A stretch of DNA of 780 nt from a phage. Below the pieces are notes generated by a model, which saw only the letters and a list, made by a program, of their open reading frames with translations, was not told the DNA's origin and did not search any database. This document shows positions 3-657 of this stretch, piece after piece (positions within the stretch are counted from its first letter, which is position 1; every line of letters begins with the position of its first letter). The stretch lies in sequence record AF056260.1. One strand, given 5' to 3'. A program made the position numbers and the translations under genes.

Positions 3-428
3 CTTAAATTGGGGGTAAGTTCTTACTTTACTCTAAATACTAGGTTTGAGCAGGGATGGACGTCTAAAGGTTCTGTAGATGTAACTACTACAAGATATAG
101 TGGCATTGCTATTACTACTACTGCTAAAGGTGATGCGACAGTTGGTACACGTAACTTATTTGAAATATCTCCCGATGGTGCATTATATGTAGCACGTCGT
201 AATAATGCTAACAATACTGGACAATGGATCATTAACTTTCCTACAGCGGCGGGTACACTTGCATTAANTGGAACATCTGACATTAACTACGAGACTAACA
301 TAGAAGAATATGATGGTATTCGTTCCATAGAAAATATTAAGGCTATGGATCTTGTTACTTTTGTATTTAANGATGATGAGAAAAAACTACTCGCAGAAGG
401 GTCATTGCTCCACAGATTGAAGAAATAA
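3..428 (+). CDS. 5'-truncated CDS, C-terminal region of a phage tail fibre / tailspike-like protein with an S74-type intramolecular chaperone (autoproteolytic) domain signature
   Basis: Supplied ORF track gives 9..428 +, but the same frame has no stop back to the window edge (codons 3-5 ctt, 6-8 aaa), so the gene most likely starts upstream; the ttg at 9-11 is not preceded by any visible ribosome-binding site. In-frame TAA at 426-428. Translation has a Thr-rich segment ([24 protein letters not shown]) followed by GT[37 protein letters not shown], which matches the remembered S-D-x-x-x-K-x-N-I ... V-T-F-x-W-K-D-D motif of Peptidase S74 domains. Product call is from motif recognition only; no database search was run. 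Confidence 0.7.
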
Positions 429-657
429 TCCTACATTCGTCAGCACACATATGAACGAGTNGGGAACCNATGTTGAANATGATGGGTTGTTCAAGGTTTA
501 CGATACAAAGAAAGATCTTCNAAATATACGTCCTTTACTAACCNCATTTNCNTNAAATTTTACCCACGGAATAAGAAAAACGAACTTTTATNACTTGAAA
601 AGANTTGAAAATGAAACCGTTGTGAACCTGTTGACTCNGAAAATNTTATTTAAAAAA
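401..657 (+). other. Probable frameshifted continuation of the same coding region (second half of the S74-like domain); sequencing indels or pseudogene
   Basis: Manual translation of the other forward frames: codon phase starting at 401 gives [10 protein letters not shown] (401-430), resembling the conserved I-A-Q-E-V-E-E-V segment; codon phase starting at 430 gives PTFVSTHMNExGTxVExDGLFKVYDTKKDL...LKRxENETVVNLL (430-636), resembling P-E-x-V ... D-G-x-L-x-V-x-Y and a terminal helical segment. The region has a 6-A homopolymer (381-386), a GGG run (399-401) and several n calls, all indel-prone. Frame junctions and the 3' end are approximate. Confidence 0.4.

Follow-up and report, generated by a model that had tools for sequence, protein, structure and literature searches.

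Premature stop and shifted reading frames at the end of a phage BF23 tail-fibre gene very probably reflect bases skipped late in a single-pass read

A 780-base stretch of phage DNA (AF056260.1, one strand; hereafter the window) contains one long open reading frame (ORF) on the plus strand, located in frame 3 from 9 to 428. Frame 3 is open from base 3 up to a TAA stop at 426–428, and no ORF longer than 32 codons was found past base 428 on either strand of the window. The initial annotation recognized an S74 domain in this frame, considered that the stop was probably not the true C-terminus, and proposed that the domain continues in shifted frames. The question raised by this locus is whether the stop and the frame changes belong to the gene or to the string of letters in which it was recorded. 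Ambiguous calls (N) were absent up to base 267, scattered from 268, and dense past 660, increasing from 0–1 to 10–11 per 60 bases along the window, which looks like a single-pass read with decaying quality. In Rfam, no RNA family was found at the gathering score on either strand of the window.

The best blastn match among 50,697 phage records, and the only one with more than 90% identity, was Escherichia phage Bf23 (OR083247). The gene under the match is annotated as ltfp, "L-shaped tail fiber protein" (BF23_00150, WLW40739.1; OR083247 77020–80817, minus strand), and no other gene overlaps the ltfp region on either strand. Judged by this match, the window is the 3′ end of ltfp (its last ~690 bases) from BF23 or a near-identical phage, together with the remains of a terminator. 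The accurate part of the read covers the last part of the mature fibre tip plus 37 residues at the start of the intramolecular chaperone (Peptidase_S74) domain, and over 3–386 it differs from OR083247 by two substitutions (G to A at 165 and A to G at 291) and two N. In BF23, a rho-independent terminator lies 3′ of ltfp, and the opposite strand carries a small hypothetical gene, dut, and the D15 flap endonuclease gene. The plasmid collection contained no match to the window, and the match in E. coli genomes was restricted to window bases 111–289.

Using blastn alone, the read was aligned only as far as base 540, and its identity to BF23 decreased from more than 99% to ~80% past 430. The DNA alignment of the window and BF23 was made with gap costs suited to sequencing errors. 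Once dropped bases were allowed, the read past 386 aligned to the same gene, with the same terminator downstream; it differed from BF23 ltfp in its lost bases, its unreadable end, and its private substitutions, namely valine to isoleucine (base 165), lysine to glutamic acid (base 291), and several past 398. The features located in the window are listed in Table 1.

Table 1. Features of the 780-base window, with positions counted from its first base
Feature	Position	Strand	Basis or remark
Accurate part of the read, 3′ part of ltfp	3–387	+	Frame 3; match to OR083247
TCT, scissile/catalytic Ser codon (G-T-S-D-I-N-Y)	276–278	+	Aligns with SDINYK of BF23 and relatives
GAG (Glu) at the catalytic Lys position of the Ser-Lys dyad	291–293	+	Private to the read
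First dropped base, G of AAAAAAC-G-TAC	387–388	+	Frame 3 to frame 2; relatives have CGT
True reading in frame 2 (13 residues), matching BF23 TRRGVIAQQIEEI	388–427	+	Protein alignment
Spurious TAA	426–428	+	Out of frame; the real gene has ATA GAT (Ile-Asp)
Second dropped base, G of ATA-G-ATCC	427–428	+	True frame moves to frame 1
True reading in frame 1, (D)PTFV, matching BF23 DPTYV	428–441	+	Alignment
Third dropped base, A of GTC-A-AGC	441–442	+	True frame moves back to frame 3 (HTYE...)
Remainder of the chaperone domain (BF23 KHTYEPCGEPIVDDDGVVQGYTDTKERIVLDNNVLLLDALCAIKVLAQRDEEKTERINKLEKDVEDLKTVVEHLLTTMKNS, then stop)	442–657	+	Gapped DNA alignment; ~42 further single-base losses
Putative collapsed rho-independent terminator (AAACCCCAGTGGATTTTGTCCACTGGGGTTTTT in BF23)	655–680	.	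Weak alignment
Unreadable end of the read	681–780	.	C and T runs; 21 N in 661–780

The length differences between the read and BF23 all had the same direction. Over 3–668, there were 49 of them, each a base absent from the read, and no insertion was observed. The losses begin at 387, and ~45 single-base losses fall in 381–657. Their density increased along the read (1, 2, 4, 10, 11, and 14 losses per 50 bases from 351), while substitutions in the same intervals numbered 1, 4, 3, 4, 5, and 6, and the intervals between successive losses shrank smoothly (40, 14, 17, 12, 13, 11, 7, 5, and so on). The lost bases comprised 21 G, 17 A, 10 T, and 1 C, a bias toward G and A that fits an effect of chemistry or base-calling better than mutation. 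As just 20 of the 49 adjoined an identical base, the losses are not mainly miscounts of homopolymers. This suggests a sequencing chemistry in which G and A gave weak peaks.

The alignment of the poor part of the read was compared with shuffled sequences. Window bases 514–665 scored 143 against the cognate BF23 stretch (shuffles, 41.9 ± 6.6; z = 15), and the maximum for unrelated pieces of this locus was 51. A z of 8 against shuffles was obtained for 600–665, and for 666–780 no alignment with BF23 above chance was found (z = −2.5). Permissive gap settings do not explain the downstream alignment.

The frame track taken from the DNA alignment changes ~40 times between 387 and 668. The domain does continue in shifted frames, as had been proposed, but frame 1 is not the continuing frame, because so many changes are passed on the way. 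In 442–657, the frame changes every few bases, and the true stop, at ~645–652, is garbled. The initial annotation had required at least two indels, one near 381–404 (an A6 homopolymer and a GGG run) and the other near 428–431. Both are real differences from the reference, but their number was far too low: with a third loss past 441 and ~45 losses in 381–657, "at least two" was a very loose lower bound. Their placement was essentially correct. The G missing past 387 lies in the first range, although it comes after AAAAAAC, outside both the A6 and the GGG run, and the G missing past 427 is one base before the second range.

The protein strings on which the shifted frames had been proposed were all located, namely a string of 10 letters in frame 2 (401–430), and, in frame 1, PTFV (430–441), DGLFKVYDTKKDL (481–519), and LKRxENETVVNLL (595–633). 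The frame-2 segment at 388–427 corresponds to the conserved GVIAQxxE core of the S74 profile. DGLFKVYDTKKDL is partly an out-of-frame reading of DGVVQGYTDTKERIV; for example, DGLFKVY in frame 1 is an out-of-frame reading of DGVVQGY, with GLFKVY (GGG TTG TTC AAG GTT TAC) obtained from [G]GG GTT GTT CAA [G]GG TAT (GVVQGY). LKRxENETVVNLL echoes LEKDVEDLKTVVEHLL, partly in frame. The frame-1 peptide from 430 to 657 matched no Pfam family, which fits its not being a real reading. A frameshift-tolerant protein-to-DNA alignment, which had been suggested as a check, traced the BF23 protein across the frames along the same path as far as base 513, using seven one-base deficits, one one-base surplus, and one skipped residue.

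The three bases that the read lacks at 387/388, 427/428, and 441/442 are all retained by BF23, the Salmonella phages SCF and Kenya-K44, the Escherichia phages phiP4 and CAjan, and the prophage of E. coli EC28, and the proteins of all six continue in a single frame. In BF23, 137 residues run in one frame from the catalytic Ser to the C-terminus, and the window DNA aligns to all of them. The annotated genes of the relatives end at least 137 residues past the Ser, and none of these homologues ends at the position of the TAA. The view that this stop is not the true C-terminus thus held; frame 3 of the read stops 49 residues past the Ser, in agreement with the ~50 residues estimated from the letters.

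The homologue search with the 141-residue frame-3 translation returned one distant match, P0001 (212 aa, 46% identity, PF13884), which is too little to judge whether homologues end at 426–428, and tblastn was used instead. With the C-terminal 228 residues of BF23 as the query, 541 of the 50,697 phage records were matched. The best eleven rows (BF23, five other T5-like phages with one listed twice, and CAjan and IMEP8, each listed twice) had the domain in one uninterrupted piece that extended to residue 214–228 of 228. Relatives were 71–89% identical to BF23 in protein sequence over this query, and at differing positions they agreed with BF23 and not with the read. No better match than BF23 to the 3′ part of the read was found in the phage, plasmid, or E. 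coli collections. An exact-pattern scan of viral contigs gave no match for the deleted allele (GATGAGAAAAAACTACTCGCAGA), the intact allele (CGT), or the Glu-codon allele; as the intact-allele control was also without a match, these scans say nothing either way.

The same interruption was visible to the Pfam profile of Peptidase_S74 (PF13884; gathering score of 22 bits, profile length of 58). The frame-3 ORF as read scored 16.4 bits, below the cut-off, with a match that begins at residue 92 of frame 3 and covers profile positions 1–35, and the domain is therefore seen as cut short. When three N were inserted (at 387, 427, and 441), the score rose above the cut-off to 22.9 bits, and profile positions 1–57 were covered, which is the same coverage as that of the BF23 reference (50.2 bits).

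Upstream of the first loss, the read carries TSDINYE in frame 3 (273–293), whereas all five phage proteins have SDINYK. The Ser of the window also aligns with the GTSGIEYK stretch of PDB 8hqz chain d, and Lys occupies the position of 291–293 in seven of the seven relatives (the six phage and prophage sequences and the PDB chain). The difference results from base 291, where the window has G but BF23 and the EC28 prophage have A; this part of the read is otherwise more than 99% identical to BF23. The change is an error in base-calling or else a genuine mutation, which would be expected to block self-cleavage.

Taking these results together, the stop and the shifted frames are very probably due to bases skipped by the base-caller late in a single-pass read of BF23 ltfp. 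The pattern of the losses points to base-calling as the cause, because the differences are deletions only, accelerate along the read, are biased in base composition, accompany a rising number of N, and are private to the read, on a template that otherwise equals an intact genome. The preference for read errors in the initial annotation is supported by the same deletion-only, accelerating losses with N and by the retention of the bases in relatives. A Sanger-type, single-pass read through the final ~690 bases of the fibre gene of BF23, or of a virtually identical phage, would lose resolution from ~387, and the base-caller would skip more and more peaks. Each skipped base would move the apparent frame by one. 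The first skip (G past 387) would eject the true frame from frame 3, which would then run into the out-of-frame TAA, and later skips (past 427 and 441, then about every 10 bases and later every 3–5) would shift the coding sequence between frames. The real gene is uninterrupted and encodes a complete C-terminal Peptidase_S74 chaperone domain, 137 residues long from the catalytic Ser onward.

Two observations weigh against this explanation. The first loss (past 387) lies in an otherwise clean stretch with no substitutions in 292–386, and taken alone it could be a real one-base deletion in the clone or the phage stock. The synonymous GAG-to-GAA changes at 421 and 424 would also suit real divergence. 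They belong to a cluster of five substitutions relative to BF23, spread over 40 bases close behind the first deletion (G to A at 398, A to C at 411, G to A at 421, G to A at 424, and A to T at 437), of which four are private to the read among the six sequences; CAjan also has A at 424. These substitutions are most simply early base-call errors, and real polymorphism would look alike.

A template that is truly frameshifted, at least past 387, would make this copy of the fibre gene a pseudogene or mutant with a truncated chaperone, with only the later indels being read errors. T5 can do without its L-shaped fibres on laboratory hosts, and mutants that lack the fibres exist; the private substitution in the catalytic Lys codon would fit relaxed selection, and the first deletion has no substitution near it (292–386 is clean but for one N). 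We nevertheless regard this explanation as unlikely, because the loss at 387 is the first member of one smooth acceleration of losses, the base is present in the complete BF23 genome and in the relatives, and one unverified read cannot establish a mutation. None of the first three indels recurred in OR083247 or in five further relatives. The BF23 assembly, moreover, is reported to align perfectly with earlier deposited BF23 fragments (PMC10644984). That the first deletion, the Lys-to-Glu change (A291G), or both were real in the BF23 template is similarly improbable. If true, the read would come from a natural fibre-maturation mutant of a classical phage, a BF23 variant in which the chaperone domain of the L-shaped fibre cannot be cleaved off or cannot be completed.

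The other two explanations are effectively excluded. Programmed ribosomal frameshifting, in which a −1 shift at GAG AAA AAA C restores the S74 domain, is suggested by the A6 run just upstream of the first frame change and by the passage from frame 3 to frame 2, which is formally a −1 shift. However, the zero frame reads GAG AAA AAA CTA with six A, which is not an X XXY YYZ heptamer, and one shift restores just 13 codons, after which more would be needed past 427 and 441 and then ~42 others. No relative shows a frame change, all of them encode the domain in a single frame, and the intact frame of OR083247 refutes the idea in practice; we assign it hardly any likelihood at all. The initial annotation had already ranked a pseudogene and programmed frameshifting as less likely, and this ranking is strengthened by the ~45 successive shifts that would be needed and that occur in no other sequence. 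A read from another, unsequenced relative whose 3′ end has truly diverged from BF23, indels included, would explain the decrease in identity past 430 and the end of the blastn alignment at 540, but real coding divergence would not consist entirely of single-base deletions that break the frame ~40 times. As the relatives side with BF23 against the read and no phage, plasmid, or E. coli record matches its 3′ part better, this explanation is very improbable.

With bases skipped in the read as the preferred explanation, the premature stop and the shifted frames are properties of the letter string and not of the gene. The underlying gene and its domain are not new, and the complete BF23 genome has both of them intact; there is nothing biologically unusual in dropped bases in a read of a known gene. 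The sole importance of the finding is in quality control. Read at face value, the sequence would yield a truncated tail-fibre ORF, a false pseudogene, or a false candidate for frameshifting; bases past ~386 are unfit for gene calling, and the frame-1 peptides past 442 are unfit as protein evidence.

Among solved structures, the closest relative of the BF23 C-terminus by sequence was chain d of PDB 8hqz ("L-shaped tail fiber assembly", 1076 aa; E = 2.8e-25, query residues 28–208 against chain 898–1073). This chain is a fibre protein of another phage with a diverged sequence, and it shares with BF23 the GTS...YK motif, the GVIA core, and a C-terminal coiled-coil segment. The C-terminal intramolecular chaperone of the phage K1F endosialidase (endoNF), the founding member of Peptidase_S74 (PF13884), belongs to the same Pfam family and is set beside BF23 by description; it is carried on a tailspike with enzymatic activity and not on a long fibre. 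The T5 fibre retains the catalytic mechanism that has been proposed for K1F (PMC4690869).

The C-terminal 133 residues of T5 pb1 (1264–1396) form a trimeric chaperone that aids trimer folding, and Ser1264, activated by Lys1269, cuts the Thr1263–Ser1264 bond after the trimer folds (Garcia-Doval et al. 2015, PMC4690869). Both proteins thus carry a C-terminal Peptidase_S74 domain on a T5-like L-shaped fibre, of 133 residues in T5 and 137 in BF23, with the same i, i + 5 spacing of Ser and Lys (S-x4-K; Ser1264 and Lys1269 in pb1, SDINYK in BF23). By analogy, the BF23 domain would release itself after trimerization, as is known for pb1 (PMC4690869). T5 pb1 differs in being absent from the DNA matches and in having a receptor-binding tip of another sequence type upstream, and its chains in the PDB sequence search, unlike 8hqz chain d, did not reach E = 0.01. 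The BF23 genome paper describes the target of the BF23 fibre as unknown (PMC10644984).

The match to E. coli genomes consists of a block of 176–179 bp (window 111–289) that is 97–98% identical to prophage tail-fibre genes in 9 of 5,426 E. coli genomes, where the genes are annotated as "tail fiber domain-containing protein" (the EC28 copy lies at L006 901–1079, NZ_CP049101.1). Translated, the block gives the final ~55 residues of the mature fibre tip, followed by GTSDINY. Its identity ends abruptly just before the Lys codon, and both flanks are diverged, which places a mosaic junction at the cleavage site, as the identity stops within the Ser...Lys motif. Judged from the sequences, a virulent T5-like phage and temperate phages appear to have recombined at the chaperone cleavage site. 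Within the block, base 165 is part of ATA (Ile) in the read and of GTA (Val) in BF23 and the E. coli prophage; of the other four phage relatives, three have Val at this residue, and Kenya-K44 has Thr.

Both ends of the matched region carry minor features. The bases at 655–680 are probably the remains of the terminator 3′ of ltfp, as CCCGGG at 669–674 and the preceding AAAACCCC can be aligned with the BF23 terminator AAACCCCAGTGGATTTTGTCCACTGGGGTTTTT if lost bases are allowed for. CCCGGG was also considered as the junction of a SmaI cloning site, but it is better explained by the terminator stem CCACTGGGG minus bases. The G+C-rich hairpin may have added compression to a read that was already poor. 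At the other end, window bases 1–2 (CC) have no match in BF23, and the match begins with CTTAAATT, directly after AG (…CGAG|CTTAAA…). Speculatively, the match starts at a blunt AluI cut (AG|CT), and CC could be a remnant of a CCC|GGG (SmaI) vector half-site.
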